Below are positions 11,470 through 56,630 of a stretch of DNA of 64,000 bases, piece after piece. A program made the position numbers and the translations under genes. The notes beneath the pieces were generated by a model. It saw nothing but the letters and a program-made list of their open reading frames with translations. It had not been told where the DNA came from and searched no databases. Position 1 is the stretch's first letter; the number at the start of each line of letters is the position of its first letter. This stretch comes from Planctomycetota bacterium (GTDB taxonomy: Bacteria > Planctomycetota > PLA2). The DNA is taken from contig JAPUHK010000024.1 in the NCBI GenBank assembly GCA_027297745.1, forward strand, positions 994-64,993, read 5' to 3'.

Positions 11470-11919
11470 TCACTCCGTGGTAACGGGAGTCTTCTTCTCG
11501 TTGAGCGCCGCCTGGAGGGTGTGCCAGGGCAAAGTAGCGCACTTCACACGCACCGGGAAGGCGCGCACGCCGAGCAGCACCACGAGCTTGCCGACCTTGT
11601 TGCGGGACTCCTCGTCGTCCTTCCGGCCCGTGACCAGGTCGTGGAAGGTCTGAAACAGCTCCGTCGCCTCCGTCACGGTCTTGCCCTTCAGCATCTGCGT
11701 CATGAGCGAGGCCGACGCGGTGGAGATGGCGCAGCCTTGGCCCTGGAAGCTGACATCCTCGACGACGTTCCCGTCCAGCTTCACGAACACGTGCACCTCA
11801 TCGCCGCACAGGGGGTTGTAGCCGTCGGCGCTGCGCGCGTCCGGGAGCGCGCGGTAGTTGCGCGGCTTGCGGCCGTGATCCAGGATCAGCTCCTGGTAGA
11901 GCTCGCGCAGGTCGCTCAT
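11470..11919 (-). CDS. sufU: SufU (NifU-family) sulfur-acceptor scaffold.
   Basis: MSDLRELYQELILDHGRKPRN. GYNPLCGDE, GQGCAISTA and KCATLPW motifs. Overlaps the sufS stop codon by 4 nt. Only the 3' 450 nt of the 428-aa track ORF is real. Confidence 0.8.
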   Translation of the reverse strand: MSDLRELYQELILDHGRKPRNYRALPDARSADGYNPLCGDEVHVFVKLDGNVVEDVSFQGQGCAISTASASLMTQMLKGKTVTEATELFQTFHDLVTGRKDDEESRNKVGKLVVLLGVRAFPVRVKCATLPWHTLQAALNEKKTPVTTE

Positions 11920-13181
11920 GCGCCGAAGAACTCTCGGGAGGCTTCCAGCGCCCGCACGAACGTGTCGACCTCCTCGAGCGAGTTGTAGAAGGCGAAGGAG
12001 GCGCGCGTCGTGGCCGGCACGCCGAACCGCTTCATCAGGGGCTGCGTGCAGTGGTGCCCCGTGCGCACGGCGATGCCTTCCTGGTCGAGGAAGGTGCCGA
12101 GGTCGTGCGGGTGCGCCCAGTCGGTGACGAAGGAGAGCACCGCCGCCTTGCATGTGGACGTGCCGAACAGCCGCACGCCGCCGATCTGCTGCAGGCCGTG
12201 CGTCGCGCGCGCCAACAGGCTCGTCTCGTGGGCGATGATGCCGTCGAAGCCGCCGAATCCCTCCAGATACTCGAGCGCCGCCGCGAAGCCGACGGCGGCC
12301 GCGACCGACGGCGTGCCCGCCTCGAACTTGCCCGGCGGCTCCCGGAACGTGGACTTGTCGAGCTGCACCGAGAGGATCATCTCGCCGCCGCCCTGGTAGG
12401 GGGGCATGCTCTCCAGCCACTTGTGCTTGCCGTACAGCACCCCCGTTCCCATCGGGCCGAACGCCTTGTGGCTGCTGAGCGCGTAGAAGTCGCAGTCGAG
12501 CTCCTGCAGGTCGACCTTCATGTGCGGCACCGCCTGCGCGCCGTCGAGCAGCACCGGGATGTCGCGCTCGTGGGCCAGCGCGACCATGCCCTTGACCGGG
12601 TTGACGGTGCCGAGCGTGTTCGACACGTGTACGAGCGCCACCAGCTTGGTGCGCTCCGTCAGCAGGTTGCCGTACGCCTCCAGGTCGAGCTGGCCGGAAT
12701 CGGTCACCGGCACGACCGTCAAGTGCGCCCCCACTGACTCGCACAGGAGCTGCCACGGCACGATGTTGGAGTGGTGCTCCATGGTCGTGATCAGCACCTC
12801 GTCGCCCGCGCCCACGTGCTGGCGGCCGAAGCTGGACGCGACCAGGTTGATGGCTTCCGTAGCGCCGCGCACGAAGACGATCTCGCTCACGTCGCCGGCG
12901 TTCAGGAAGCGCCGCACGGTCTCGCGCGCGCCCTCGTAGGCCTCGGTCGCCGCCTGGCTGAGCGCGTGCACGCCGCGATGCACGTTCGAGTTGATCTCCG
13001 TGTAGAAGCGCTGCAGGCGCTCGAGCACCACGCGCGGCTTCTGCGCGCTGGCGGCGTTGTCGAGGTAGACCAGCGGCTTCCCGTGCACGCTGCGTTCGAG
13101 CAGCGGGAAGTCGGCGCGCACGCGCTCGACGTCGATCGGCGCCACGGGCGAGCTGGCCCGGACTTCCTCGAGCGTGCTCAT
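11916..13181 (-). CDS. sufS: Cysteine desulfurase SufS (class II aminotransferase, group II).
   Basis: PLP-binding Lys in ALSSHKAFGP. Conserved active-site Cys in RTGHHCTQP. About 420 aa. Confidence 0.9.
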   Translation of the reverse strand: MSTLEEVRASSPVAPIDVERVRADFPLLERSVHGKPLVYLDNAASAQKPRVVLERLQRFYTEINSNVHRGVHALSQAATEAYEGARETVRRFLNAGDVSEIVFVRGATEAINLVASSFGRQHVGAGDEVLITTMEHHSNIVPWQLLCESVGAHLTVVPVTDSGQLDLEAYGNLLTERTKLVALVHVSNTLGTVNPVKGMVALAHERDIPVLLDGAQAVPHMKVDLQELDCDFYALSSHKAFGPMGTGVLYGKHKWLESMPPYQGGGEMILSVQLDKSTFREPPGKFEAGTPSVAAAVGFAAALEYLEGFGGFDGIIAHETSLLARATHGLQQIGGVRLFGTSTCKAAVLSFVTDWAHPHDLGTFLDQEGIAVRTGHHCTQPLMKRFGVPATTRASFAFYNSLEEVDTFVRALEASREFFGA

Positions 13182-13188
13182 CTCGCGC

Positions 13189-14429
13189 CTAGCCCTCCTC
13201 GTTCCCCGGCAGGCGGCTGTCTAACAGCCGGTCCGCCCGTTCGCGCACCGCAGCAACGTCGAGCCGCTTCGTGATCTCGCCCGCGAAGGCCCGGATCAGC
13301 AGGTTGCGCGCGCGGTCCTTCGTCAGCCCGCGGCTGCGCAGGTAGAACAGCGCCTGCTCGTCGAGCTGTCCGATCGTGGCGCCGTGCGAGCACTTCACGT
13401 CGTCGGCGTAGATCTCGAGCTGCGGCTGGGTGTCCATGACCGCGGTGTCGGTCAGGAGCAGGTTGGCGTTCGACTGGAACGCGTCCGTCTTCTGCGCATC
13501 CTCGTAGACGTGGATGCGCCCCGTGAAGACGCCGGACGACGCGTCGTCCAGAATGCCCTTGTACAGCTCGTGGCTTTCGCAGTGCGGCACCCGGTGCTCG
13601 ATGAGCGTGTGGTTGTCGACGTGCTGCGAGCCGCGCGTCATGAACAGGCCGTTGAGGGTGCCGAGGCTGCCCTCGCCACGTAGCGCGGCGGTGATGTCGT
13701 TGCGCGTGAGCCGGCCGCCGAGCGTCACGACGTTCGACGTGTAGCGGCTGTCGCGCGCCTGGCTCACCCAGACGTTCGACGTGTGGAAGGCGGACTCGTT
13801 CTCGAGCTGCAGGCGCGTGTGCTTCAGCGCGGCGTTTTCCGAGACCAGGACGACACCGACCGCGTTCGTCCAGTGCTCGCCGGTGCCCAGCGAGACGTAG
13901 GTCTCGACGATCTCGGCGCGCCCGTTGCGCTTGACGTGGTAGACGTTGCGCGGATGGCAGGCCTTGCCGTCCGTCCCGATGAACAGGACGTGCAGCGGCT
14001 CCGCAAGCTCGCCCTCCACCTCGACCACGGCCCCGTCCTCGAGGAACGCGGTGTTGAGCGCGACGAACGCCGGGGCGTCGTCCTTCAGCTCGAAGTCGAT
14101 CGTGTCCCGGATGCTGGCCAAGCTGACGCCGACCTGCGCGTCCGAGAGGTCGGCGCGGTAGTGGCCGTCCACGAAGACGAGACTGCCGCCGAAGCCGAGG
14201 CGGGCGACGTCGTCCGGAGTGACGCCGTTCGTGGACGGCCGCCCGAGCGTCAGGTCGCTCTTGGCGATCGGCGCCACGTTGGTGAAGCGCCAGTCCTCCA
14301 GATGCGTGTCGGGGAACCCGAGCTCCTTGAAGCGCGCGATGCCCTCGGTGCGCAGCGCGTGCAGCGCATCGGCCCCGCGCTCCTGCACGAGCGCCTCGTG
14401 GTCCCGAAGGATGCGTTCCATGGTGTCGG

Positions 14430-14433
<4 letters not shown>
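13189..14433 (-). CDS. sufD: Fe-S cluster assembly protein SufD.
   Basis: Position between sufC and sufS. C-terminal SufBD signature (QLEIYADDVKCSHGATIGQLDEQALFYLRSRG). Confidence 0.85.
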
Positions 14434-15185
<752 letters not shown>

Positions 15186-15236
15186 GTCTTTCGTTCTTCC
15201 TCTTCGCGCTTTCGCGTTCGTTGTCTCAGGGTTTCT

Positions 15237-16700
<1,464 letters not shown>

Positions 16701-16702
16701 GC

Positions 16703-17140
16703 CTATTGCACCTTTTCGAGGGGGGGAAACGTGACCGTGGTGGCCATATCGCTGAGCGGGATGTTGCGCAGCGCGTCGCGCACGGCCTGGTTGATGCGCT
16801 GCCAGTTCGTGCGCACGGGGCAGCAGAACTCGATGCCGCACTCGTCGGTGGCGGTGTCGAGGCACTCGGTCAGCGCGATGGGGCCCTCGGTAGCTTCGAT
16901 GATCTCCGCCACCGTGATCTCCTCGGCGGGGCGCGGGAGGCTGTAGCCGCCCTTCACGCCGCGGTACGAGACCAGCAGCCCCGCGCGGCCGAGCGCCTTC
17001 AGCGTCTTGCTGACGGTGGGCAGCGGCAGGCCCGCGCACTTGGCCAGGTCGCGGGCGTTCTGGACCTTCTTCTCGGGCGCGCCCGCGAAGTGGGTCATCA
17101 GAACGATGGCGTAGTCGGCCTGTCGGGTGAGTCTCAGCAT
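16703..17140 (-). CDS. Rrf2-family transcriptional regulator (IscR/SufR-like) with Cys ligands for an Fe-S cluster.
   Basis: N-terminal winged HTH ([39 protein letters not shown]). Cys cluster [17 protein letters not shown]. It sits 2 nt upstream of sufB and is the first gene of the suf operon. Confidence 0.85.
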
Positions 17141-17154
17141 GGGGCCCTCTCAAA

Positions 17155-17175
17155 ACAGGACTCTCGCGGTCCTGT
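17155..17175. promoter_or_regulatory. Perfect 7-bp inverted repeat ACAGGAC-N7-GTCCTGT, 15 nt upstream of the rrf2 start codon; candidate autoregulatory operator of the Rrf2 regulator.
   Basis: Seen directly in the sequence. Rrf2 regulators such as IscR bind palindromic sites overlapping their own promoters. A second palindrome, AGAGTACTCT, lies at 17184-17193. Confidence 0.45.
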
Positions 17176-17370
17176 ATGAAGAAAGAGTACTCTACAGACC
17201 CTATTTAGCTCGGTCAATCTTTCGCGCCCGCTCCCCGTCGGTTGCTCCGATCCCCTGCAAATCGTTGATCGGTAGGGCGTTGCGCGCCTCGGGGCGCGGC
17301 GCGTCTGCCACGCCTCCAGGGGTCTACATGGTTGCTCTGCCGCCGGTCGCGGACTGGGGGTGCCCCATCG

Positions 17371-24785: not shown

Positions 24786-25087
24786 GCATCAGTCTCTACC
24801 ACTACCTCGGCCTCGGCGCAGCGCTGTTCGCGATCGGCGTGATCGGCGTGGTCACGCGCCGCAACGCGATCGGCCTGCTGATCGGCGTCGAGCTGATCCT
24901 CAACGCCGCCAACATCAACCTGGTCGGCTTCAGCCGTTTCAGCGGAAAGCTGGAGCCCCAGGTCTTCGCCCTGTTCGTCATCGTCCTGGCCGCCGCGGAG
25001 GCGGCTGTGGCCCTGGCCATCGTTCTGCAGCTGTTCGACAAGCGCAAGGACGTGGACGTGGACCGCGCCAGCGCGCTCAAGGGGTGA
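24782..25087 (+). CDS. nuoK: NADH-quinone oxidoreductase subunit K.
   Basis: GTG start overlapping the nuoJ stop codon (GTGA). About 100 aa with three TM helices. Conserved GVELILNAANINL. Confidence 0.82.
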   Translation: MSISLYHYLGLGAALFAIGVIGVVTRRNAIGLLIGVELILNAANINLVGFSRFSGKLEPQVFALFVIVLAAAEAAVALAIVLQLFDKRKDVDVDRASALKG

Positions 25088-25097
25088 CGCCGAAGTC

Positions 25098-27056
25098 ATG
25101 ATGCACGCCCTTCCCTCCTACGCCGTCTGGATCGTGCTGGCGCCCGCGCTGGCCGCGCTCTTGCAGAACTTTTGCGGCAAGCTGCTGCCGCGCAAGGGCG
25201 ACTGGCTCGTCGTGGGCGGCATGGGCGTCTCGCTCGCGCTGTCGCTGATGGTGCTGATGGAGTGGAGGGCCCTCGATCCGGGCCACTACTTCGAAGGCAG
25301 CGTCACCTGGTTCCAGTTGACGGGCGGCATCTCGTTCTCCGTCGGCATCGTGATCGACGGCCTGACCGCGGCCATGCTGATCGTGGTCACGCTGGTCTCG
25401 CTGCTCGTGTTCGTGTTCTCGATGGGCTACATGAAGGGCGACCGGCACTACGACCGCTTCTTCTTCTGGCTCTCGTTCTTCAGCACCTCGATGCTGATCC
25501 TGGTGGTGGCCGACAACCTGCTGCTGCTGTTCGTCGGCTGGGAGCTGGTGGGGCTTTGCAGCTACAAGCTGATCGGCTTCTGGGGCCAGGACCTGGCCAA
25601 CGCGGAGGCGGCCAAGAAGGCCTTCATCACCACCCGCGTGGGCGACGTCGGGATGCTGATCGGCATCCTCATGATGTACAAGGCCTGCGGCACGCTCTCG
25701 TTGCAGGGCGTGTTCGCGCAGGTGCAGGCCGGAGCGATCCAGGGCAGCGCGCTGACCTGGGCCGGCATCGCGCTGTTCCTCGGCGCGGTCGGCAAGTCGG
25801 CGCAGTTCCCGCTGCACGTCTGGCTGCCGGACGCCATGGCGGGCCCGACGCCTGTCAGCGCGCTGATCCACGCGGCCACGATGGTGGCGGCGGGGGTCTA
25901 CTTCGCGGCGCGCATGTTCCCGATCTTCACGCCGCAGGCGCTGTACTTCATCGCCTGGACGGGCGGTGTGACCGCGCTGCTGGCGGCGCTCATCGCGGTC
26001 ACGCAGACGGACATAAAGAAGGTGCTGGCCTACTCCACGATCAGCCAGCTCGGCTACATGATCCTCGGCGTCGGCGTGGGCGCTCCGTGGGCGGCCATGT
26101 TCCACCTGTGCACGCACGCCATGTTCAAGGCCTGCCTGTTCCTCGGCTCCGGCTCCGTGATCCACGCCATGCATCACACCCAGGAGCTCGAGGACATGGG
26201 CGGCCTGCGCAAGAAGATGCCGGTCACCTTCTGGACCTTCGTGGTCAGCACGCTCGCGCTGGCCGGCATCCCCTTGTTCAGCGGCTTCATGTCGAAGGAC
26301 GCAATCCTGTTCGAGGCGTTGCACAGCGGGCAGACGGCGCTGTTCGCGATCGGGCTCGGTGCCGCCTTCCTGACCGCTTTCTACATGACGCGCATGCTGT
26401 GGCTGTGCTTCATGGGCGAGCCGCGCAACCGGGAGAAGCACGACCACGCGCACGAGTCGCCCGTGAGCATGACGCTGCCGCTGGTCGTGCTGGCACTGCT
26501 CTCGATCGGGATCTTCTGGGGCGGGTTCGCGGACGACTATTTCACGACGCCCGCCTACCACGCGGACTACCCGCAGACGGCGGAGGTGGCGGCGGCTTAT
26601 GCGCCAGCGGGAGAGGTGCGCGCTCATCCACACCACCCGGTGTGGTTCCTGCTGCTGGCGAGCGCGATGGGTCTCGGCGGCATCGCGCTGGGCATCGCGC
26701 TGTTCCGCTCCGGCAAGCGGGACCAGGACACGGTGCTCTTGCCCGAAGGGCTGCACCGCACGGCGAAGAACAAGTACTACCTCGACGACCTCTACCTGGG
26801 CTGGGGCTTCGTCGGGCTCGGTGACACGCTCAGCCGTTGGAGCCGCGTGGCCGACGACCGCGCGGTCGACGGCGCGGTCAACGGTGTCGGCAGCGCGGGC
26901 GTGACCGTCGCCGAGATCAGCGGGGACGCGGACCAGGTCATCGTGGACGGCGCTGTCAACCTGGTCGCGGACGCCACGGACGCGGTAGGCGGCGTGGCCA
27001 GTAGCGCGCAGACGGGGCGCATTCGGAACTACCTGGGAGCAGCACGACGGTCGTGA
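25098..27056 (+). CDS. nuoL: NADH-quinone oxidoreductase subunit L (antiporter-like).
   Basis: 652 aa, polytopic. WLPDAMAGPTPVSALIHAATMVAAGVY motif. Confidence 0.9.
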   Translation: MMHALPSYAVWIVLAPALAALLQNFCGKLLPRKGDWLVVGGMGVSLALSLMVLMEWRALDPGHYFEGSVTWFQLTGGISFSVGIVIDGLTAAMLIVVTLVSLLVFVFSMGYMKGDRHYDRFFFWLSFFSTSMLILVVADNLLLLFVGWELVGLCSYKLIGFWGQDLANAEAAKKAFITTRVGDVGMLIGILMMYKACGTLSLQGVFAQVQAGAIQGSALTWAGIALFLGAVGKSAQFPLHVWLPDAMAGPTPVSALIHAATMVAAGVYFAARMFPIFTPQALYFIAWTGGVTALLAALIAVTQTDIKKVLAYSTISQLGYMILGVGVGAPWAAMFHLCTHAMFKACLFLGSGSVIHAMHHTQELEDMGGLRKKMPVTFWTFVVSTLALAGIPLFSGFMSKDAILFEALHSGQTALFAIGLGAAFLTAFYMTRMLWLCFMGEPRNREKHDHAHESPVSMTLPLVVLALLSIGIFWGGFADDYFTTPAYHADYPQTAEVAAAYAPAGEVRAHPHHPVWFLLLASAMGLGGIALGIALFRSGKRDQDTVLLPEGLHRTAKNKYYLDDLYLGWGFVGLGDTLSRWSRVADDRAVDGAVNGVGSAGVTVAEISGDADQVIVDGAVNLVADATDAVGGVASSAQTGRIRNYLGAARRS

Positions 27057-27073
27057 TTCTGCTTTAGGAAACG

Positions 27074-28624
27074 ATGAACGAACTCACGTATGCGATCTTC
27101 CTCCCGCTGGTCGGGATGCTGGCGGTGCTCTTGACCAACAAGGAGAAGCCGCAGCAGGCGCGCGTGGTCGGCTTCCTGTTCACGCTCGTCACCTTCGGGC
27201 TGTGCACCCTGGTGGCGCTGCAGTGCTTCAACGCGGGCGACGTGGACGGCTACCACTACCGCGTCCAGGCAGTGTGGATCGACCTCGGCGGCAGCTTCCA
27301 GGTGCACTACTCGATCGGCGTGGACGGCCTCAGCGGCATGCTGATCTTCCTGACGGGGCTGCTGGGCGTGTGCGCCGCGCTGGCGTCGTGGAACATCAAG
27401 CAGGGCACGCGCGGCTACTGGGCCATGTTCCTGCTCTTGCACACGGGCGTGATCGGCACCTTCGCCTCGCTGGACCTGTTCCTGTTCTACGTCTTCTGGG
27501 AGATCGTGCTCCTGCCGATGTACTTCCTGATCGGCGTGTGGGGCGGCCCGCGGCGCAGGTACGCGGCGATCAAGTTCTTCCTGTACACGCTGTTCGGCTC
27601 GGTCTTCCTGCTGGCCGGCATCCTGGTCACCTACTTCGCGCTGACGGCCACGGGGTCCGGCTTCGCCGGCAACCCATTCAGCATTCCAGAGATCACGGCC
27701 TACGCGAGGGTGACGGACAACATCATGGCGCCCTTCGGCGAGAGCGCGCACACGATCGCGACGCTCGTGTTCTGGGGCCTGTTCGTCGCCTTCGCGATCA
27801 AGGTGCCAGTCTTCCCGTTCCACACGTGGTTGCCGGACGCCCACGTCGAGGCGCCGACGCCCATCTCCGTGATCCTGGCGGGCATCCTGCTGAAGCTCGG
27901 CGCGTACGGCATGCTGCGCATCGGGTTCCCGTTCTTCCCAAAGATCTTGCACGAGATGGCCTTCTATCTCGGCGTGCTGGGAATGATCAACATCATCTAC
28001 GGCGCGCTGGTGGCCATGGCGCAGACCGACTTCAAGCGGCTCGTGGCCTACTCGTCGGTCTCGCACATGGGCTTCGTCATCCTCGGCTTCGCCGCGATGA
28101 CGCCGGAATCGCTGAACGGCGCGATCCTGATGATGTTCAACCACGGCACGATCAGCGGCCTGTTGTTCCTGGTGGTGGGCGTCGTGTACGACCGCGCGCA
28201 TCACCGCGACCTGGGACGTTTCGGCGGGCTGATGTGGAACATGCCGATCTACGCCGCAATCAGCGGCGTGGCAATCTTCGCCTCGCTCGGCCTGCCCGGC
28301 TTGAGCGGTTTCATCGGCGAGATACTGACCCTCCTCGGGTCCTTCAAGACGACCTTCTACGAGCACGCCGGCCTGATCACGGTCGTGTGCACGATCGGCC
28401 TGGTGTTGACCGCGGCCTACTACCTGCGGGCGCTGCAGCGCGTCTTTTTGGGCGAGACCAACCCTGAGTGCGAGTCGTTCCCCGACGTCGACACGCGCGA
28501 GATCGGCTCGATGGTGCCGCTCCTGGTGCCGACGATCGTCTTCGGCATCTATCCCGCGCCGCTGATCGACCTGATCCAGGGTCCCGTGAGTAGCCTCGTG
28601 CTGATGGTGAAGAGTCTGGGCTGA
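27074..28624 (+). CDS. nuoM: NADH-quinone oxidoreductase subunit M.
   Basis: 516 aa. WLPDAHVEAPTPISVILAGILLKLGAYG motif. Confidence 0.9.
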   Translation: MNELTYAIFLPLVGMLAVLLTNKEKPQQARVVGFLFTLVTFGLCTLVALQCFNAGDVDGYHYRVQAVWIDLGGSFQVHYSIGVDGLSGMLIFLTGLLGVCAALASWNIKQGTRGYWAMFLLLHTGVIGTFASLDLFLFYVFWEIVLLPMYFLIGVWGGPRRRYAAIKFFLYTLFGSVFLLAGILVTYFALTATGSGFAGNPFSIPEITAYARVTDNIMAPFGESAHTIATLVFWGLFVAFAIKVPVFPFHTWLPDAHVEAPTPISVILAGILLKLGAYGMLRIGFPFFPKILHEMAFYLGVLGMINIIYGALVAMAQTDFKRLVAYSSVSHMGFVILGFAAMTPESLNGAILMMFNHGTISGLLFLVVGVVYDRAHHRDLGRFGGLMWNMPIYAAISGVAIFASLGLPGLSGFIGEILTLLGSFKTTFYEHAGLITVVCTIGLVLTAAYYLRALQRVFLGETNPECESFPDVDTREIGSMVPLLVPTIVFGIYPAPLIDLIQGPVSSLVLMVKSLG

Positions 28625-30183
28625 TGCTGCTGGGTGCGGAAGCCTTTATCCCCGACGTCTCGGCGTTGTTCAGCCACTTCGGCGCGGAAGTCGTGCTGGC
28701 GTTGGGGATCCCCTTGCTCCTCGTGGCGGACCTGTTCACCCGCCGCAACAAGGAGTCGGTCACCGGCGCTCTCTCGCTGGTGCTGTTGACCGTCGCCCTC
28801 GTGCTCGGGCTCTGGCAGGACTCCTCCAGCAGCGTCGGTCTGACGAGCCTCTTGCGCGCGGACGGGCTGGCCAAGGGCTTCCGCGTGATCGCGCTGGCCA
28901 GCGGCGTGATCACCGCGGTGGCAGCACTGCGCGGCGGTGACGCGGTGCGCCACCGGACGGAGTTCTTCGTGCTCCTGATGGGGGCCGTACTCGGCGCCTG
29001 CCTCACGGCGGCCGCGAACGAGATGGCCATGCTGTACCTCGCGATCGAGACGCTGTCGATCGCCGGGTACCTGCTGGCCGGCTTCAAGCGGCGCGATCCG
29101 CAGGGCTCGGAGGCCGCGCTGAAGTACATCATCTTCGGCGCCATCTCCTCCGGCATGATGCTGTACGGCCTGACCTTGCTGTACGGCTTCGGCGGGACGA
29201 GCCTCTTGACCACGCCGCCGGGCGCCCCTGAAGGCACCGTTTCGCTGCAGTCCTATCTGCAAGAGAACGCCTCGGCGCTCGCCATGAAGCCCGCCTTCAT
29301 CGCCGCCGTGGTGCTGGTGTTCGCGGGCCTGGCCTACAAGATCGCCGCGGCGCCGTTCCATTTCTGGTGCCCCGACGTCTACCAGGGCGCGCCCACCTCG
29401 GTGGCGGGTTTCCTGGCCGTTGCCGGAAAGGGCGCCGGGCTGGCCGCCTTCATCCGCATCGTGCAGGCCGTCACCGGCGGCGCCGGCGACCACATCACGG
29501 ACCTCTTGGCCAGGCACAACGACGTGATCCGCACGGTGCTGATCGGCATGTCGATCGCGACCATGACGATCGGGAACGTAGCCGCGCTGCGCCAGCGCAA
29601 CGCCAAGCGGATTCTGGCCTACAGCGCCATCGCGCACGCGGGCTACATCCTGATGGGTCTCACGGTCACCAGCCGCGCGGGCGCGACGGCCATGCTCTTC
29701 TACATGGGCGTCTACGTGTTCATGACGTTCGGCGCCTTCTTCATGGTGGCGCTCGTGGAGCGCGAAAAGGGTAGCTGCGACCTGTCGGCCTTCGAGGGGC
29801 TCGGGTTCCGTGCGCCCTTCTTCGCCGTGTCCTTCGCGATCGTGCTGATCAGCCTGACGGGCCTGCCGCCGACCGGCGGCTTTTGGGCCAAGGTGTTCCT
29901 GTTCGAGGGCGTGTTCAGCTACGGCGGCGCGCACTCCTCGAGCCTGTACCTGTGGTTCGGCGTGATCGGCCTGCTCAACGGGGTCATCTCGCTGGTCTAC
30001 TACGCCCGCTTCCTGAAGGCCATGTACCTGGCCGACCCGGAGCACAACACCGGCTCCGGGCTGGAGCTCGGCCTGGCGGACAAGAGCATGGTGTTCGCCA
30101 TGACGCTGCCGCAGCTGGTGCTCGGCGTGATGTTCGCTGGGCTCTACGAGACGGCGCAGCTTCTGGTCGTGGATCTCTTCTGA
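28624..30183 (+). CDS. nuoN: NADH-quinone oxidoreductase subunit N.
   Basis: 519 aa. WCPDVYQGAPTSVAGFLAVAGKGAG motif. TGATG overlap with nuoM. Confidence 0.88.
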   Translation: MLLGAEAFIPDVSALFSHFGAEVVLALGIPLLLVADLFTRRNKESVTGALSLVLLTVALVLGLWQDSSSSVGLTSLLRADGLAKGFRVIALASGVITAVAALRGGDAVRHRTEFFVLLMGAVLGACLTAAANEMAMLYLAIETLSIAGYLLAGFKRRDPQGSEAALKYIIFGAISSGMMLYGLTLLYGFGGTSLLTTPPGAPEGTVSLQSYLQENASALAMKPAFIAAVVLVFAGLAYKIAAAPFHFWCPDVYQGAPTSVAGFLAVAGKGAGLAAFIRIVQAVTGGAGDHITDLLARHNDVIRTVLIGMSIATMTIGNVAALRQRNAKRILAYSAIAHAGYILMGLTVTSRAGATAMLFYMGVYVFMTFGAFFMVALVEREKGSCDLSAFEGLGFRAPFFAVSFAIVLISLTGLPPTGGFWAKVFLFEGVFSYGGAHSSSLYLWFGVIGLLNGVISLVYYARFLKAMYLADPEHNTGSGLELGLADKSMVFAMTLPQLVLGVMFAGLYETAQLLVVDLF

Positions 30184-43167: not shown

Positions 43168-43473
43168 ATGGACGGTGACTTCATGGACGGTGCTCAGGCC
43201 AGGCTCGCCGCGTTGCGCGTGATGCAGGACGTGCTGGACGGGAGCGTACGGCGGGTGGGGGAGCTGCGCCGGGCGTGGCCGCCGGCCGAAGCTGATTTCC
43301 TGCTGAAGCGGGCGCGCCAGGAGGCGGAGCACTACCTGGTCACGGGCGGGGAGCTCGAGCGCCGTTTCGTGGCCATGCTGCGCTCGTTTCTGGAACGCGG
43401 CGGCACGGCCGGGGAGCTCGAGCAGGCCTACGATGAGGTGATCCGAGTCCACAACGAGGAGACGGGTGACTAG
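43168..43473 (+). CDS. Hypothetical protein.
   Basis: About 100 aa. The start is ambiguous (ATGs at 43126, 43168 and 43183). The 3' end overlaps the DUF488 start by 8 nt. No family recognised. Confidence 0.4.
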   Translation: MDGDFMDGAQARLAALRVMQDVLDGSVRRVGELRRAWPPAEADFLLKRARQEAEHYLVTGGELERRFVAMLRSFLERGGTAGELEQAYDEVIRVHNEETGD

Positions 43474-44011
43474 CCCGAAGCTCTTCACCGTCGGCCACAG
43501 CAACCGCACGGCGCCGGATCTCGTGCGGCTGCTGCTTGCGCACGGCATCCGCACCGTGTGCGACGTGCGCGCCTTTCCGAAGTCGAGCCGCTGGCCGCAT
43601 TTCGACCGCGAGGCGCTGGAGCCTGTGTTGCAGGACGCCGGGATCGAGTACGTCTGGCTCGGCGAGCCGCTCGGCGGCTACCGCAAGGGCAAACGCACGG
43701 ACTCGGTGCACACGGCGCTGGACAGCTTCCGCAGCTACGCGGATCACATGGAGAGCGACGAGTTCCGTGCAGGGATCGCGCGCTTGCTAGCGCTCGCGTG
43801 CGAGACGCCGACGGCCTACCTGTGCGCCGAGAAGGACTGGCGCCGCTGCCACCGGCGCCTGATCTCAGACCACCTCGTGGAGCTCGAGGGCGCCGCAGTG
43901 GTCCACCTGCTGGCAGCGGACGCCTGTGAGGCCCACGCGCTGGACCCGCGTGCCCGCGTCGTGGCGGGGCGCCTGGTGTACGACCGGGGCGCGCAGGCCG
44001 AGCTCTTCTGA
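43466..44011 (+). CDS. DUF488-family protein.
   Basis: LFTVGHSNRT ... CAEKDWRRCHRRLI is characteristic of DUF488. GTG start. Confidence 0.7.
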   Translation: MTSPKLFTVGHSNRTAPDLVRLLLAHGIRTVCDVRAFPKSSRWPHFDREALEPVLQDAGIEYVWLGEPLGGYRKGKRTDSVHTALDSFRSYADHMESDEFRAGIARLLALACETPTAYLCAEKDWRRCHRRLISDHLVELEGAAVVHLLAADACEAHALDPRARVVAGRLVYDRGAQAELF

Positions 44012-44051
44012 CGCCGCGCTGTCCCGGGCTTCTGTTAGGCTTTTGTTAGGT

Positions 44052-45077
44052 ATGCTGACAAGGGTCGAGAACCCGCCGAACCCGTGGCACTCCCAGCACC
44101 AGGAGTGGGTTGGACCGCCGCCGCCTGCACGCCTGCAGGTCTACGAAGAGAGGGCCAGGTCGATCGTGGTTGAGAACCGGAGCCCAGACGTGGGCTTCGG
44201 TTTCTCCATCAACCCCTACAGGGGGTGTTTTCACGGGTGCTCCTACTGCTACGCGAGGCCCACGCACCAGTACCTCGACTTCGGCGCGGGCACGGACTTC
44301 GAGCGCAAGATCGTCGTGAAGGTCAACGCGCCGGAGCTTCTGCGCGAGCGCTTTCTCAAGCCTTCGTGGCGGGGCGATCTGATCGCACTTTCGGGCAACA
44401 CCGATTGCTATCAGCCGCTCGAAGCCACCTACGGGATCACCCGCCGCATCCTCGAGGTCTGCGCGGAGTTCCGCAATCCAGTGGCCGTGATCACGAAGGC
44501 GGCGCTGATCCGGCGCGACGTCGACGTGCTTTGCGAGCTGGCGCGCCGGGCGCAGCTGTCGGTCTCTTTCAGCATCCCGTTCGTCGACGAATGGATGGCG
44601 CGGCAGATCGAGCCTTACGCGCCGTCCCCGGACATGCGCTTTGGGGCCATGCGCGTGCTGGCCGAGGCCGGGATTCCGGTCGGCGTGGCCGTGGCTCCGC
44701 TGATCCCCGGACTGAACGACAGCCAGGTGACCGCGATCCTGGAGCGGGCGCGCGATTGCGGCGCGCGCAGCGCGTTCAAGATCCTGCTGCGCCTCCCCGC
44801 GGAGGTGAAGGACGTGTTCATCCCCCGCCTGCGGCGCTCCTACCCGGGGCGTTCGAAGCGTGTGCTGAACGCGCTCAAGGAGATGCGCGGCGGCGCCCTG
44901 TACACCGCGCAGTTCGGCAGCCGCATGCGCGGCCGCGGACACCGCTGGAAGGCGCTCGAGGACCTGTTCGAGGTCACCTGCCGACGGCTCGGGCTCAACG
45001 CGCGCCGCACGGAGGAAGAGCCGACGACCTTCCGCCGGCCGTGCACGCAGCTCTCGTTGCTCGACCCTACGCCGTGA
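44052..45077 (+). CDS. Radical SAM protein (SPL / DNA-photolyase-like radical SAM family).
   Basis: CFHGCSYCYA (CxxxCxxC) near the N-terminus. About 340 aa. Start taken at the internal Met MLTRVENPP. Confidence 0.75.
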   Translation: MLTRVENPPNPWHSQHQEWVGPPPPARLQVYEERARSIVVENRSPDVGFGFSINPYRGCFHGCSYCYARPTHQYLDFGAGTDFERKIVVKVNAPELLRERFLKPSWRGDLIALSGNTDCYQPLEATYGITRRILEVCAEFRNPVAVITKAALIRRDVDVLCELARRAQLSVSFSIPFVDEWMARQIEPYAPSPDMRFGAMRVLAEAGIPVGVAVAPLIPGLNDSQVTAILERARDCGARSAFKILLRLPAEVKDVFIPRLRRSYPGRSKRVLNALKEMRGGALYTAQFGSRMRGRGHRWKALEDLFEVTCRRLGLNARRTEEEPTTFRRPCTQLSLLDPTP

Positions 45078-45635
45078 AGATGCCCGGCGGGGCGTCCAGG
45101 TGTCCGCCGCTCGCGCCCGTGGCGACCACCTCCGCCGACAACTGGCCGCAGCCCATACCCTCCCGCTTGCCGGCGCTGTAGCGGGTCTTGACGGGGCAGC
45201 GCAACGCGCGCAGCCGTGTCGTGAACCGCTTCACCTCGTCCCACGACGGGGGCCGGAAGGCGCTGTCCGTGTCGTTGTAGGGGATCACGTTGAGGATGTA
45301 GCGCGAAGGCGCAGCCGAACGCGCAGCCCGCCTGCGACGACAGGCAGAGCGTGACCGCCCGCGCGTTCCGGATCAGGACGGTCTCGACGATCTCGCCGGG
45401 AGCGGTGCGGAAGAGCAGCTTGCGCGTGCCGTCCTCGGCCCGGCGTACGGCAACGGTCTCGAGCAGCGGTCCGAAACGCGCGCGGTCCCGCAGCCGCAGC
45501 CCGCGGTCGAGCCCGTCCCAATCTAGCGCCCCTCTTGTGCACGGCGAGCGCGATGCGGCGTGCGACTTCGTCGGCCACGCCGAGCGTCTCCGCGAGTGCG
45601 GGGATGGGGACGTCACGCAGGTGCGGCCTGTGCAC
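45067..45635 (-). pseudogene. rlmN: Decayed remnant of rlmN (23S rRNA m2A2503 / tRNA methyltransferase, radical SAM), with about 600 nt deleted internally and frameshifts.
   Basis: Three frames each carry a recognisable RlmN segment. N-terminus: LRDVPIPALAETLGVADEVARRIALAVHKRGA. Cluster region: VETVLIRNARAVTLCLSSQAGCAFGCAF. C-terminus: IPYNDTDSAFRPPSWDEVKRFTTRLRALRCPVKTRYSAGKREGMGCGQLS. The radical-SAM core between the CxxxCxxC motif and the C-terminal domain is missing. Only about 20 nt separate the two segments. Confidence 0.7.
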
Positions 45636-45673
45636 GGGGGCACGAGCCTACCAGTCTCATCCCGCCTTGGACG

Positions 45674-46318
45674 CTACGCGCGCACGGTGCGCACCGCGCG
45701 CTTCGCTCCCCACGGCTGCGGCACCCAGCCCGAAGCCGTGATCCAGCAGAACGTGAGCGCAGCGGAGATGCCTACCGTGTAGACGGCCGCCGTGGCCAGG
45801 AGGCGGCTCTGCAGCGCCGCAGCCAACAGGCCGACGGTGCTGAGCAGCGTCACCGCGTACATGGCGAGCATGACCAGCGACGCGAAGATGCCGCCGAGCA
45901 CCGCCGTCACGCAGCGCCTCTGCTGAGGGGAGAAGTCGAGCGGGCCCGTGAGCGTGATGGTCACGACGCAGGCAAGCGCCAGGCCCATCAGCAGAGCCGC
46001 GTAGCCGATCAGGTGCGGCACGGCGAAGCCGGCCAGCAGCGTCACGCCCGCCATGCGCCAGGCCACCCAGCCGACGCGGGCACAGCTCTCCGCCAGTTGG
46101 GGCCGGGGACAGACGCCTGAGCTCAGGGGCCTGAGCGGCATGTGCTGCGCGATGCCGTTGATCAGCTCGCGGAAGCAGGCCGCCTCGATGCGGATGCGGG
46201 AAAGGCCCTGCTCCCGCAAGGCGCGCCGTGTCTCCAGCAGGTCCTCCCGGAACTGGGGCCGGATATCGCCCGGCACCGCGCACGAGAGGAGCTTCACCCA
46301 TACCTGTGCGTGCGACAT
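45674..46318 (-). CDS. Membrane protein with a cytoplasmic N-terminal domain and four or five TM helices.
   Basis: MSHAQVWVKLLSCAVPGDIRPQFREDLLETRRAL is followed by hydrophobic helices. No family recognised. Confidence 0.5.
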   Translation of the reverse strand: MSHAQVWVKLLSCAVPGDIRPQFREDLLETRRALREQGLSRIRIEAACFRELINGIAQHMPLRPLSSGVCPRPQLAESCARVGWVAWRMAGVTLLAGFAVPHLIGYAALLMGLALACVVTITLTGPLDFSPQQRRCVTAVLGGIFASLVMLAMYAVTLLSTVGLLAAALQSRLLATAAVYTVGISAALTFCWITASGWVPQPWGAKRAVRTVRA

Positions 46319-46528
46319 TGGTGGTTGAACCTCCGTGTTGCACCTTGGCACGAAACCGTGCAGGGGCAAACCGGTTTACAGGGATGAAGCCTCTCTGTGG
46401 CCCGGATGTCCTCCAACGACACAGCTCCGGCCCGATTCGATACAGAAGGGACCTGGACCGATACACCGGAGCGGGACCCGGGCCTGGTCTACAATCACAG
46501 CGCCCGAAAACCCCGATCGGAGCCCGCC

Positions 46529-53566: not shown

Positions 53567-56395
53567 CTAGGGTCCGCTGACGTAGTTGCCGGCGTTGCCC
53601 CCGATGTTGCCGTTGGCGTCCAGCCAGGAGTCCAGGTGGATTCCGATGGCCGGGTCGGGGTTGGTCAGCCTGTCGATCAGCGTGCCCGTCAGCGGTCCCG
53701 CCATGGTCGGGTTGGGCGTGCCCGTGCGCAAGCTCGGGCCCGTCCCCGGCATGAGCGGGTGGTTGCTGGAGCTCGTCGGAGTTCCGTCCGCGAGCACGAT
53801 GCTGTCCAGGTTGTAAGCGATGCGGGTCATGAACGTGGCCGGGTCGAAGGCCGTCGCCGGCGCGACCGTCACGTTCTGGATGCCCGGATCGGCGAAGATG
53901 CCGTACCGGTTCGGGTTCTGGTCCAGCGGGTTGATAGCGCCGCCGTTCCCGTCGAACAGGAACAGCCCCGTACCCAGGCCGGCCACCATGTGCACCCAGA
54001 AGGGTGAGTTCATCTGGTTGCCGGAGTTCTGGCCGAAGTGCTGCCTCAGCTCCGTGAAGTCCAGTTGATCGTAGCTTCCGCTCGCCATGGCGGAACGGAA
54101 GGCCACGTACTCGGTCCCGTACTGCTGCATACCCGCCTCGGTGATGTGGCACGCGACGCAGTAGCGCGGGCCCTCCATGGTGGAGGTGACGCGGCCGCGG
54201 ATCGAGTGGGCCATCATCGCGTTGTGACCGAGCGAGGGCGTTTGGTTGGGGTCGCTCCCCTGCGCCTTGCGGTCGGAGAACGTGAAGATGCTGGACAGCT
54301 GGTTGTTGCGGTCCTCCCACTGGAAGAACATCTTCGTGTTCGAGCTGACCTGCGTGATCTCGTTGTGCGGGCTGATGCCCAGCGCCATGAACACGGGCGA
54401 CTGGTACACGAACTCGGCCTCGTCCTCCTCGAAGACGATGCGCTCGCCCGTGATGTTGCTGAAGTCATTCGAGTACTCGCCCTTCAGGTGACAGCCCATG
54501 CACGTGTTCGTCCACGAAGCGTGGCAGGACGCGCAGTCCAGGTCGTCCGTGTGGCTGAAGTTGCTCGGGACCGCGTTGTTCGCCTGGATCGGACCTATGC
54601 CGGTCGTGCCCAGGCCGTCGTCACGGCCCATCGCATAGGAGGCCTTGTCGCTGTACAGGGGCGCCCCGCTGAACGGGTGCGTCCGGCCCGTGTTCACGGT
54701 GACGTCCAGCGTCTGCGGGACGAAGTGACGCGCGCCCGTGAGACGGCTGTACAGGTAGAAGTGGCCGTCGCTCTCCAGCACGACGTGCGCCAGGGTGTTC
54801 CCCTCGCCGTCCACCGCCAGCTCCTGGGTGGTGTTGTCGTAGGCCGTGCCTTGAGCCGTCTGGGCATAGGCCGCGACGCCGCCGTGGCAGCTCTCGCAAC
54901 GGATCCCCACGGCGTGCTCCATGCGGCTCACGATCTTGCCGCCGCTCGGGGAGGTCACGTCGCCGCCGTGCAGGTCGAAGCTGCCGTGGCAGTCGATGCA
55001 GCCCATGCCGGCCTCGTAGTGCACGTCGGGCGGGGTGTCGTCGCGGCCGTCGTCGTCGTAGTCCTCCTCGAGGAGGTACTGGTTGCGGTTGCGCCCGTTG
55101 AACTCGCGGTTCCCCAACCGGATCAGGACGCCGTTCTGGTCGTAGATCGGCAGGTTGGGGTCGAACAGGCGCGTGTCGCCGGAGGTCGTCCGGTAACTTC
55201 CCGGCTGCGACGGGTACTGGAAGCCGCGCCGCACGTCCTGGTTCTGGTCGAGGCGGATGCCCCAGTACTGCATGACCGTGCGGTTCGAGCCCTGGTGGCA
55301 GCCGGCGCAGGCGTAGTCGTCGATGCCCTGGACGAACTCGCCGCTGGACAACGTCTTGGCCACGGTGCGGATCAGGTGGCGGGCGACGTGCGGCAGCTCG
55401 GGCTCGTCGATGTCGTCCGGATCGTACGGCTCCATGCGGTTGAGGTTCGGATCGTTGCTGGTGGAGCGCCCGCTCAGGCTGTGGCGCATGTGGCACGCCG
55501 AGCAACCCGAGCCGCGGTAGTCGCCGTAGCGGTTGTTCGCGCCGGCGCTGCCGAGGTGGCAGTCTCCGCAGGTGTAGGCGATCTGCTCGTGATAGAGCTT
55601 CGCCAGCGGGGAGTCCGTGATCGCCTGGCCCGTCAGCGGATCGATGTCGTCATCGAGCTCGGCGGCGTCGAAATCCGGGTTGTTGCGGATGTCGTTCGGG
55701 CCGTTGTTGAAGCGCCGGCTGTAGACCGGGAACTCCATCAGGTTTTGCACCGAACCGAAGGTCGTCGGGTCGAAGCTCTGGTCCGTGACGGCGCGAATGC
55801 CCAGGTCGGCGGCCGTGTCCTCGTAGCCCGTGTACCCCATCTGGTTGTCCACGCCGGCCGCGAACATCGCGCCGGAGAAGATGCCCATCTCGGTGGCGAT
55901 CGGGCTCTGGGACACGATCTGCGCGTGGTTCGCGTGGCACTGGCCGCAGCTGCGGTTCTGCGTGACCACGCGGATGTCGGCCGGGCTGACGAACTGCAGC
56001 CAGTCCAGCGCGCTGTAGGTCTGCCCGTTCGCGGCCGTGTAGTCCGGGAACTTGTCCGGACCGGCCAGGGTCAGCCGGTTGAAGTAGGCGTGGTCGTTGT
56101 TGATCCAGTTCTGCCGGTCGCCGATCTCGGGCGGCGCCGGGACGTGGCTCGAGGCCCTGTCCGTCCCGTTCGGGTTTCCGCCGTGGCAGGTGGTGCACAG
56201 CAGGTTGCTGGCGCCCGTGAAGGGGTGTGGGTTCTCGAGGCCCGGGCCCCCGTAGTTGTTGTCCACGGAGCCGTTGTGGCAGGTCATGCACGACTGGGCC
56301 GACGCTGTGATCGCGCGGCCGCTGGAGTCGACGCAGCCCGTCACGACGAACGCCAGTAGGAAGATGACTGAGAGGAGACCTCTGTGATGAGTCAT
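53567..56395 (-). CDS. Undecaheme c-type cytochrome lipoprotein (outer-membrane / extracellular multiheme cytochrome candidate).
   Basis: Lipobox LAFVVTGC. Eleven CxxCH motifs (CMTCH, CTTCH, CGQCH, CGDCH, CSACH, CAGCH, CIDCH, CESCH, CASCH, CMGCH, CVACH) in about 940 aa. The ATG at 56395 has an alternative GTG at 56407. Confidence 0.85.
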   Translation of the reverse strand: MTHHRGLLSVIFLLAFVVTGCVDSSGRAITASAQSCMTCHNGSVDNNYGGPGLENPHPFTGASNLLCTTCHGGNPNGTDRASSHVPAPPEIGDRQNWINNDHAYFNRLTLAGPDKFPDYTAANGQTYSALDWLQFVSPADIRVVTQNRSCGQCHANHAQIVSQSPIATEMGIFSGAMFAAGVDNQMGYTGYEDTAADLGIRAVTDQSFDPTTFGSVQNLMEFPVYSRRFNNGPNDIRNNPDFDAAELDDDIDPLTGQAITDSPLAKLYHEQIAYTCGDCHLGSAGANNRYGDYRGSGCSACHMRHSLSGRSTSNDPNLNRMEPYDPDDIDEPELPHVARHLIRTVAKTLSSGEFVQGIDDYACAGCHQGSNRTVMQYWGIRLDQNQDVRRGFQYPSQPGSYRTTSGDTRLFDPNLPIYDQNGVLIRLGNREFNGRNRNQYLLEEDYDDDGRDDTPPDVHYEAGMGCIDCHGSFDLHGGDVTSPSGGKIVSRMEHAVGIRCESCHGGVAAYAQTAQGTAYDNTTQELAVDGEGNTLAHVVLESDGHFYLYSRLTGARHFVPQTLDVTVNTGRTHPFSGAPLYSDKASYAMGRDDGLGTTGIGPIQANNAVPSNFSHTDDLDCASCHASWTNTCMGCHLKGEYSNDFSNITGERIVFEEDEAEFVYQSPVFMALGISPHNEITQVSSNTKMFFQWEDRNNQLSSIFTFSDRKAQGSDPNQTPSLGHNAMMAHSIRGRVTSTMEGPRYCVACHITEAGMQQYGTEYVAFRSAMASGSYDQLDFTELRQHFGQNSGNQMNSPFWVHMVAGLGTGLFLFDGNGGAINPLDQNPNRYGIFADPGIQNVTVAPATAFDPATFMTRIAYNLDSIVLADGTPTSSSNHPLMPGTGPSLRTGTPNPTMAGPLTGTLIDRLTNPDPAIGIHLDSWLDANGNIGGNAGNYVSGP

Positions 56396-56630
56396 TTCTG
56401 ATCTCACTTTGCCCGACCCCTCCGGCGGCGACCGCCGGAGTCCGAGCGAGAGGGCGTGAGAGCCGGCCCCACGAGGGAGAGACCAACACGCGGTAGTCCG
56501 ATGCTAGGAACGGGTATCACTTGGAGGGGGGCCTGAGAGACGCAACTTGAGACTTCAGCCGGAGCGTCTCGTTGTGAGGCGGCTCGATCGGAAACGCCGG
56601 CGGTCTGCCCCACAAACCGTGCGGGGCCGC

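Follow-up and report, generated by a model that had tools for sequence, protein, structure and literature searches.

A young pseudogene of an RlmN/Cfr-family radical SAM gene, probably formed in place, in an uncultured Planctomycetota lineage

RlmN is a dual-specificity radical SAM methylsynthase that modifies C2 of A2503 in 23S rRNA and A37 in tRNA (E. coli structures PDB 3RF9, 3RFA and 5HR6; also 6FZ6), while Cfr is the radical SAM methylsynthase for C8 of A2503 and confers antibiotic resistance. The 64-kb stretch of DNA analysed here, henceforth called the window, matches a contig from a Planctomycetota MAG at NCBI, the proteins of which include MCZ6571809 to MCZ6571813, and in it a sequence-only reading had recognised a broken rlmN at 45067-45635. 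The locus raises the question of what gene was broken, by which lesions and how recently, and whether the organism lost its RlmN along with it.

Layout and surroundings of the remnant

Translation of the minus strand at 45067-45635 revealed three collinear pieces, each in another frame, that together preserve both termini of an RlmN/Cfr-family gene and part of its radical-SAM cysteine motif. Segment 1 (45530-45635, minus strand) opens with a GTG start codon at 45635-45633 and covers some 35 codons from the beginning of the N-terminal domain (VHRPHLRDVPIPALAETLGVADEVARRIALAVHKRG); in alignment it is collinear with the intact allele described below and with the proteins of its clade. Segment 2 (45305-45529, minus strand), identified by translation and alignment, comprises 75 codons ending in ...TRKLLFRTAPGEIVETVLIRNARAVTLCLSSQAGCAFGCAF / ...AVTLCLSSQAGCAFGCAF; it retains the equivalents of E. 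coli Cys118, Cys125 and Cys129, and stops one codon short of the third cluster cysteine. It is followed by an orphan G at 45304 (minus strand), which is the last base of a Leu CTG codon, and then by segment 3 (45067-45303, minus strand), which holds the last 78 codons at 45303-45070 (RYILNVIPYNDTDS...GMGCGQLSAEVVATGASGGHLDAPPGIFTA, i.e., RYILNVIPYND...GMGCGQLSAE...PPGIFTA), including the Cys355 equivalent, and a TAG stop codon at 45069-45067. By alignment, both mechanistic cysteines, equivalent to E. coli Cys118 and Cys355, are present in the remnant within LCLSSQ and GMGCGQL, and they are mutually out of frame in the window. The CX3CX2C motif, on the other hand, is incomplete, ending as GCAFGCAF with the third Cys deleted, where the intact allele has GCAFGCAFC. 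In GenBank, the region 45067-45288 (minus strand), which is all of segment 3 except its first five codons, appears as a hypothetical protein of 73 aa, MCZ6571813.1 / MFB3065538.1 (the latter with locus tag ACE10D_03390).

The similarity of these pieces to the RlmN/Cfr family is far beyond chance. When the joined fragments were compared with NCBIfam, only RlmN/Cfr models matched, with E values of 1e-20 to 4e-10 (1e-20 to 5e-18 for the RlmN-family models). The scores were far under the model cut-offs because most of the protein is gone; on TIGR00048, the NCBIfam RlmN equivalog with a curated whole-protein cut-off of 290 bits, the joined remnant scored 65 bits. Comparison with an intact relative by phmmer gave E = 9e-47, and tblastn with an intact clade protein as query matched the remnant at 5e-34 and 7e-18. 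Alignment of the fragments with E. coli RlmN and with the intact clade proteins was collinear as well, its gap opening at the third Cys and closing immediately ahead of RYILNV. The three-frame remnant of an RlmN-family gene, with the coordinates and motifs originally read from the letters, was thus upheld by translation, NCBIfam, phmmer and tblastn alike.

The flanking genes were likewise as first described, namely a radical SAM gene and a membrane protein. The convergent neighbour (44052-45077, plus strand) encodes a PA0069-family radical SAM protein (NF033668, 392 bits versus a cut-off of 360), in agreement with its NCBI name (MCZ6571812.1), and its 3' end overlaps that of the remnant by 11 nt. 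The upstream neighbour (45674-46318, minus strand), on the same strand as the remnant and 38 nt from its start codon, encodes a 214-aa hydrophobic protein that had no match in Pfam or NCBIfam; it has 3-4 predicted transmembrane stretches, and its hydropathy peaks lie at approximately residues 109-208 of a longer, 231-aa ORF (45674-46369). It is to be noted that, at 43466-44052 of the window, a DUF488 gene gives way to a long upstream extension of the PA0069 ORF, with an overlap of 86 nt; a different NCBI metagenome contig has DUF488 and PA0069 joined as a single 537-aa ORF (P0062), with a frameshift as the probable cause.

The wider surroundings are those of a core chromosome. Regions 11919-17204, 24897-30180 and 53570-56503 encode SUF iron-sulfur assembly proteins (SufS-like, SufB/D), three membrane subunits of the NADH:quinone oxidoreductase / Mrp-antiporter type (Pfam Proton_antipo_M), a planctomycete-type ECF sigma factor (PF07638) and a 978-aa multihaem cytochrome. 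Scans of the whole 64-kb window for tRNA genes and Rfam families found none, nothing in these surroundings suggested a mobile element, and a promoter and terminator scan of 44800-46500 returned nothing. A repeat search of 44500-46500 found short chance repeats only, with no IS-like long inverted repeats or other long repeats.

The intact allele and the lesions of the window copy

The nature of the lesions became clear from a sister sequence, L025 (NCBI metagenome GCA_044345325.1), which is 95.4-95.7% identical to the window in nucleotides and carries an intact 352-codon RlmN-like ORF at the same locus. The gene order is common to both, the PA0069 gene and the 214-aa membrane gene flanking the RlmN-like gene in L025 as they flank the remnant in the window. 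At least six distinct intact 352-aa sequences, including the representative, were found in the 90% identity cluster of L025 among ENA and NCBI contigs. The window copy is a unitary pseudogene, its reading frame being disrupted relative to the intact orthologue at the same locus.

Global alignment of the window with L025 left one 488-nt gap, one 2-nt gap and 11 substitutions. The larger gap equals 162 codons plus 2 nt, and not the approximately 200 codons that had been estimated earlier; it extends from the third Cys codon of GCAFGCAFC, i.e., the third Cys of CX3CX2C, through the 'CT' of the Leu codon that precedes RYILNV. At the resulting junction (45303-45305, minus strand), TTC ends at 45305, the orphan G follows at 45304, and the CGC of RYILNV starts from 45303. 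This deletion removes the third CX3CX2C cysteine, the MGxGEP segment and most of the radical-SAM core up to just before RYILNV, and it puts the C-terminus with its Cys355 equivalent out of frame. The secondary, 2-nt deletion (45525-45530, minus strand) changes the intact GGCGCGCT to GGCGCT in the window, one GC unit of a GCGCGC run being gone, and is the source of the frame change between segments 1 and 2. Alignment of the fragments, which had been proposed as the way to find the breakpoints, has therefore placed them and has in addition separated the 2-nt loss that splits the first two frames.

Both breakpoints of the 488-nt deletion fall, in the intact allele, within TGCGCC(TT/CG)CTGCGC, an imperfect direct repeat with 12/14 matches and with its copies at a distance of 487 nt. 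Compared with a clean repeat-to-repeat deletion, the junction is shorter by one base, reading TTCGCGCTAC and not TTCTGCGCTAC; the mechanism therefore requires either that one more nucleotide was lost or that the ends were joined imprecisely. The breakpoint repeat is also not unique, since the GC-rich gene contains 15 pairs of 14-mers with at least 12 matches. It had been suggested that the deletion may mark a past rearrangement; the unchanged gene order and the position of the breakpoints in two neighbouring repeat copies identify it instead as a local event.

Independent assemblies, drift and probable gene death in place

The same locus was retrieved from three other public assemblies at approximately 99.7% identity, namely L001 (Logan ERR10503120), L019 (Logan SRR18078966, 9.6 kb) and L020 (NCBI GCA_041931445.1). 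The junction of the 488-nt deletion is identical in all four assemblies, the window included. The 2-nt loss is found in the window and L019 and is absent from L001 and L025; the L020 contig spans the junction and not the 2-nt site, as it stops at window position 45427. L001 has its own loss of 7 nt at 45131-45137. Its lesions happen to leave an ORF of 187 codons, which was considered as a conserved 'mini-protein'; this candidate was rejected, as the 2-nt deletion breaks the 187-aa ORF after about 36 codons in the window and in L019. The ORF is an accident of the 7-nt loss in that one strain, and a residual N-terminal peptide might, judging from this frame, still be made in some strains.

These assemblies also offered a measure of constraint. 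Variation among them is about sixfold denser in the remnant than in the surrounding 9 kb, with 10 events in 569 nt versus 26 in 9043 nt (Fisher p = 3e-5), and the indels are of 2 and 7 nt in the remnant and of 3 and 6 nt outside it. The remnant thus acts as unconstrained DNA, its constraint having relaxed after inactivation. Relative to the intact allele, it has 9 synonymous and 2 non-synonymous differences (pS 0.05-0.07, pN 0-0.008), similar to the flanking genes, and it follows that the inactivation is recent and that most of the divergence predates it. The deletion postdates the split from the L025 lineage and predates the spread of the four deleted assemblies. As a separate observation, the window, L019 and L020 are polymorphic for in-frame indels of 3 nt and 6 nt at approximately 39434 and 39470 of the window; these sites fall within a small gene that matches Cytochrome_P460 weakly, or immediately upstream of it.

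Two explanations would deny that a resident gene has died at this locus. According to the first, the organism has an intact gene, and errors of assembly or sequencing produced both the deletion and the frameshifts; the end of the L020 contig inside the remnant would agree with it, as would the many broken genes in some related long-read metagenome contigs, e.g., L023. However, the four assemblies that share the junction come from different read sets and assemblers, and the 2-nt deletion recurs in two of them; the flanks of the window and L001, moreover, are identical over 600 nt, so that the window is not error-prone here. The common junction excludes mis-assembly, no intact frame emerges in this lineage upon correction of errors, and the probability left to an artefact is negligible. 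The other explanation, already raised by the sequence-only reading, is that of a decaying duplicate, i.e., a redundant second copy, with an intact clade copy elsewhere in the genome. Such a copy might sit, for example, in the conserved neighbourhood that surrounds the intact gene in six more distantly related MAGs (Dus, RlmN-like, AAA16/TPR and THUMP-like methyltransferase), none of which genes is in the window. Against it, the nearest lineage has its intact 352-aa allele at this very locus and between the same two genes, which makes the window copy the resident one. Furthermore, database searches found the 73-aa fragment as the only clade member in the two NCBI MAGs of the lineage (MCZ65718xx and MFB30655xx), and none of the six NCBI-source clade matches with shown accessions falls in either series. 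A redundant duplicate is therefore considered highly improbable. A related idea, that of a translocated copy, had arisen from the lack of synteny, in either direction, between the window and 15 homologue loci, and was overturned by L025.

The best explanation, to which we assign a probability of about 0.9, is that of a young pseudogene that formed in place from an RlmN/Cfr-family gene by a repeat-associated 488-nt deletion and then drifted. The comparisons document directly which lesions arose and in what order, that independent assemblies carry them, and that an intact allele occupies the same locus in L025. The ancestor would have had a 352-codon gene for an RlmN/Cfr-family radical SAM methylsynthase between the small membrane-protein gene and the convergent PA0069-family gene. 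A single 488-nt deletion would then have joined the two copies of the 14-nt imperfect direct repeat (TGCGCCNNCTGCGC), 487 nt apart, probably through slipped mispairing or illegitimate recombination along with the loss of one extra base. The product should be unable to bind the 4Fe-4S cluster or SAM, and hence the enzyme would be lost, presumably leaving no useful product. In the later drift, the sub-lineage of the window and L019 lost the GC unit of the GCGCGC run, and L001 its 7 nt.

Identity of the parent clade and consequence of the loss

Whether the dead gene was 'the' rlmN depends on the clade to which it belonged. The best 120 database matches are mostly full-length proteins (344-390 aa, 51-99% identity), every organism name shown among them is Planctomycetota or Planctomycetes, and a profile search of genome contigs with the clade alignment retrieved 15 intact homologues, all of them in Planctomycetota MAGs. 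These matches place the parent gene in what appears to be a Planctomycetota-specific clade, the intact members of which retain the full cysteine set and show evident purifying selection. On TIGR00048, the intact L025 allele scored 223 bits and eleven other intact members 218-268 bits, so that 12/12 are below 290, whereas a canonical planctomycete-type RlmN (L022), used as control, scored 365. The RlmN_N domain (Pfam PF21016) was found neither in the five intact clade proteins scanned nor in the precomputed domain lists of the best 120 clade matches; canonical RlmN matches do carry it, and the clade aligns with a degenerate N-terminal counterpart only. Scores on the Cfr models NF000424 / TIGR04432 / NF011024 were lower than on the RlmN models (137-187 bits in intact clade members versus cut-offs of 468-550), and the best NCBIfam and PDB matches of the clade are RlmN (PRK14470, TIGR00048 and 6FZ6). 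NCBI names for clade members alternate between 'RlmN' and 'radical SAM protein'. The Dus and THUMP-like methyltransferase neighbours in several MAGs would fit an RNA-modifying role of the clade. Taken together, the remnant may be regarded as a member of the RlmN/Cfr family. Since the clade members tested score below the RlmN cut-off and no RlmN_N domain was found in those scanned, the label of 'the' rlmN is unproven; of the original identification, the truncated, non-functional RlmN-family gene has stood, and the housekeeping rlmN was not established.

Several relatives offered observations of their own. L018 and L021, which rank among the sequences next closest to the remnant (80% and 77% nucleotide identity, respectively), are also disrupted, and both lesions (L018, 160-175; L021, 380-400) lie at the same Ser codon of ...GP(C/H)I-S-(K/R)KRI(S/T)IS. 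In L018, TCG has become TAG; in L021, a 5-nt tandem duplication (TCTCG) splits the gene into ORFs of 172 and 166 aa. The shared site could be due to chance or to a mutational hotspot. The gene is intact in close relatives of L021 (identity of 90% or more), e.g., in P0089. Downstream of its frameshifted gene, L021 has a cluster (L021:3903-9931) encoding UQ_con (E2-like), Trypsin_2, Prok-RING_1, FHA and JAB proteins, which looks like a bacterial ubiquitin-like conjugation system. In L002 (8637-9962), the Dus gene upstream of an intact RlmN-like gene was called at 441 aa; its Arg-rich tail appears to be read in the wrong frame, and the call overlaps the RlmN-like start by approximately 135 nt; a 368-aa RlmN-like ORF from 9827 suits the homologues better than the called protein of 310 aa.

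Two readings of the consequence are compatible with a gene that died in place. In one, the clade is a dispensable RlmN-like paralogue with an RNA target of its own, and a canonical rlmN elsewhere in the genome keeps m2A2503, so that little would change with the loss. The sub-threshold TIGR00048 scores of all twelve intact members tested, the lack of PF21016 in the five scanned, the inconsistent NCBI names and the disruptions in L018 and L021 all point this way, as do the RlmN/Cfr paralogues already documented, which include additional Cfr-branch members in Planctomycetes (PMC2836569, PMC5062987) and make the earlier description of rlmN as normally single-copy too strong. Speaking against it, no genome was shown to have both the clade type and the canonical type, the canonical-looking RlmN matches P0031 (L023), P0040 (L024) and P0044 (L022) all being from unrelated samples; the clade scores higher on RlmN than on Cfr models, keeping both mechanistic cysteines and a degenerate N-terminal domain; it adjoins other RNA-modification genes in several MAGs; and sporadic loss is known for true rlmN too (PMC5062987, PMC13158455). 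We lean, modestly, towards this reading. In the other, the clade is a fast-evolving RlmN orthologue, and the lineage, having lost its sole RlmN, is now without m2A2503 in 23S rRNA and m2A37 in tRNA. This would agree with the preference of the clade for RlmN among NCBIfam and PDB entries (6FZ6 at 6.5e-52 versus Cfr at 3e-32), with its wide distribution in full-length form, with the purifying selection and with the window itself, in which tblastn with E. coli RlmN, a canonical planctomycete-type RlmN and an intact clade protein found no second RlmN/Cfr-family member within the 64 kb. Nevertheless, the scores lie under the curated RlmN cut-off, family paralogues are known in the phylum, and some 64 kb of a multi-megabase genome is silent on the rest, which leaves loss of the sole RlmN as a tentative, if serious, possibility. 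That the clade is the only RlmN-type enzyme of the group, and the lineage has recently become naturally free of both m2A2503 and m2A37, would on present sequence comparisons be rather unlikely.

The young pseudogene matters mostly for annotation, as the GenBank 'hypothetical protein' entries MCZ6571813.1 and MFB3065538.1 should carry a pseudogene flag. It also documents a clean, datable gene death in one species-level population of uncultured Planctomycetota, complete with the intact allele, the 488-nt deletion and the lineage-specific small indels. Its importance would be greater only if the clade is the sole RlmN, in which case the lineage would be a natural m2A2503-free organism that can be compared with an intact sister. 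The independent lesions in L018 and L021 would then point to a recurrent, possibly selected, environmental loss of ribosome modification. Loss of RlmN gives low-level resistance to antibiotics of the peptidyl-transferase centre (PMC5062987).

Among known systems, RlmN is matched by the intact allele in length class (352 aa), in the motifs LCxSSQxGCxxxCxFC and GxGCGQL, which hold the equivalents of Cys118, Cys125/129/132 and Cys355, in an identity of approximately 29-36% to the E. coli enzyme, and in PDB matches to 6FZ6 (E = 6.5e-52) and 3RF9, the E. coli RlmN (2.3e-34). It differs in the sub-cut-off TIGR00048 scores of its clade and in an N-terminal domain that Pfam does not recognise as RlmN_N, and the window copy differs further in being a remnant from which the catalytic core and the third cluster cysteine are missing. 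Cfr is of the same family and fold, and its PDB match is comparable (9P0P at 3.1e-32); unlike Cfr, however, the clade favours the RlmN models, and the window locus is core chromosome, with SUF and Nuo genes nearby and no mobile or resistance context seen. As rlmN is dispensable and natural loss-of-function alleles of it have been described (PMC5062987, PMC2883592, PMC13158455), the closest parallel is found in the natural rlmN loss alleles of S. aureus and M. tuberculosis and in those from laboratory selection, in which, as here, a non-essential RlmN-family gene is inactivated by frameshift or deletion within a population; alleles of this sort are readily generated (same three sources). Those alleles concern canonical rlmN in clinical isolates under selection by linezolid or other antibiotics, whereas the window gene is a member of a divergent clade, its host is an uncultured bacterium from the environment, and no selective agent is known. 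Whether or not it was the sole RlmN, this gene loss is an event of an already known kind.
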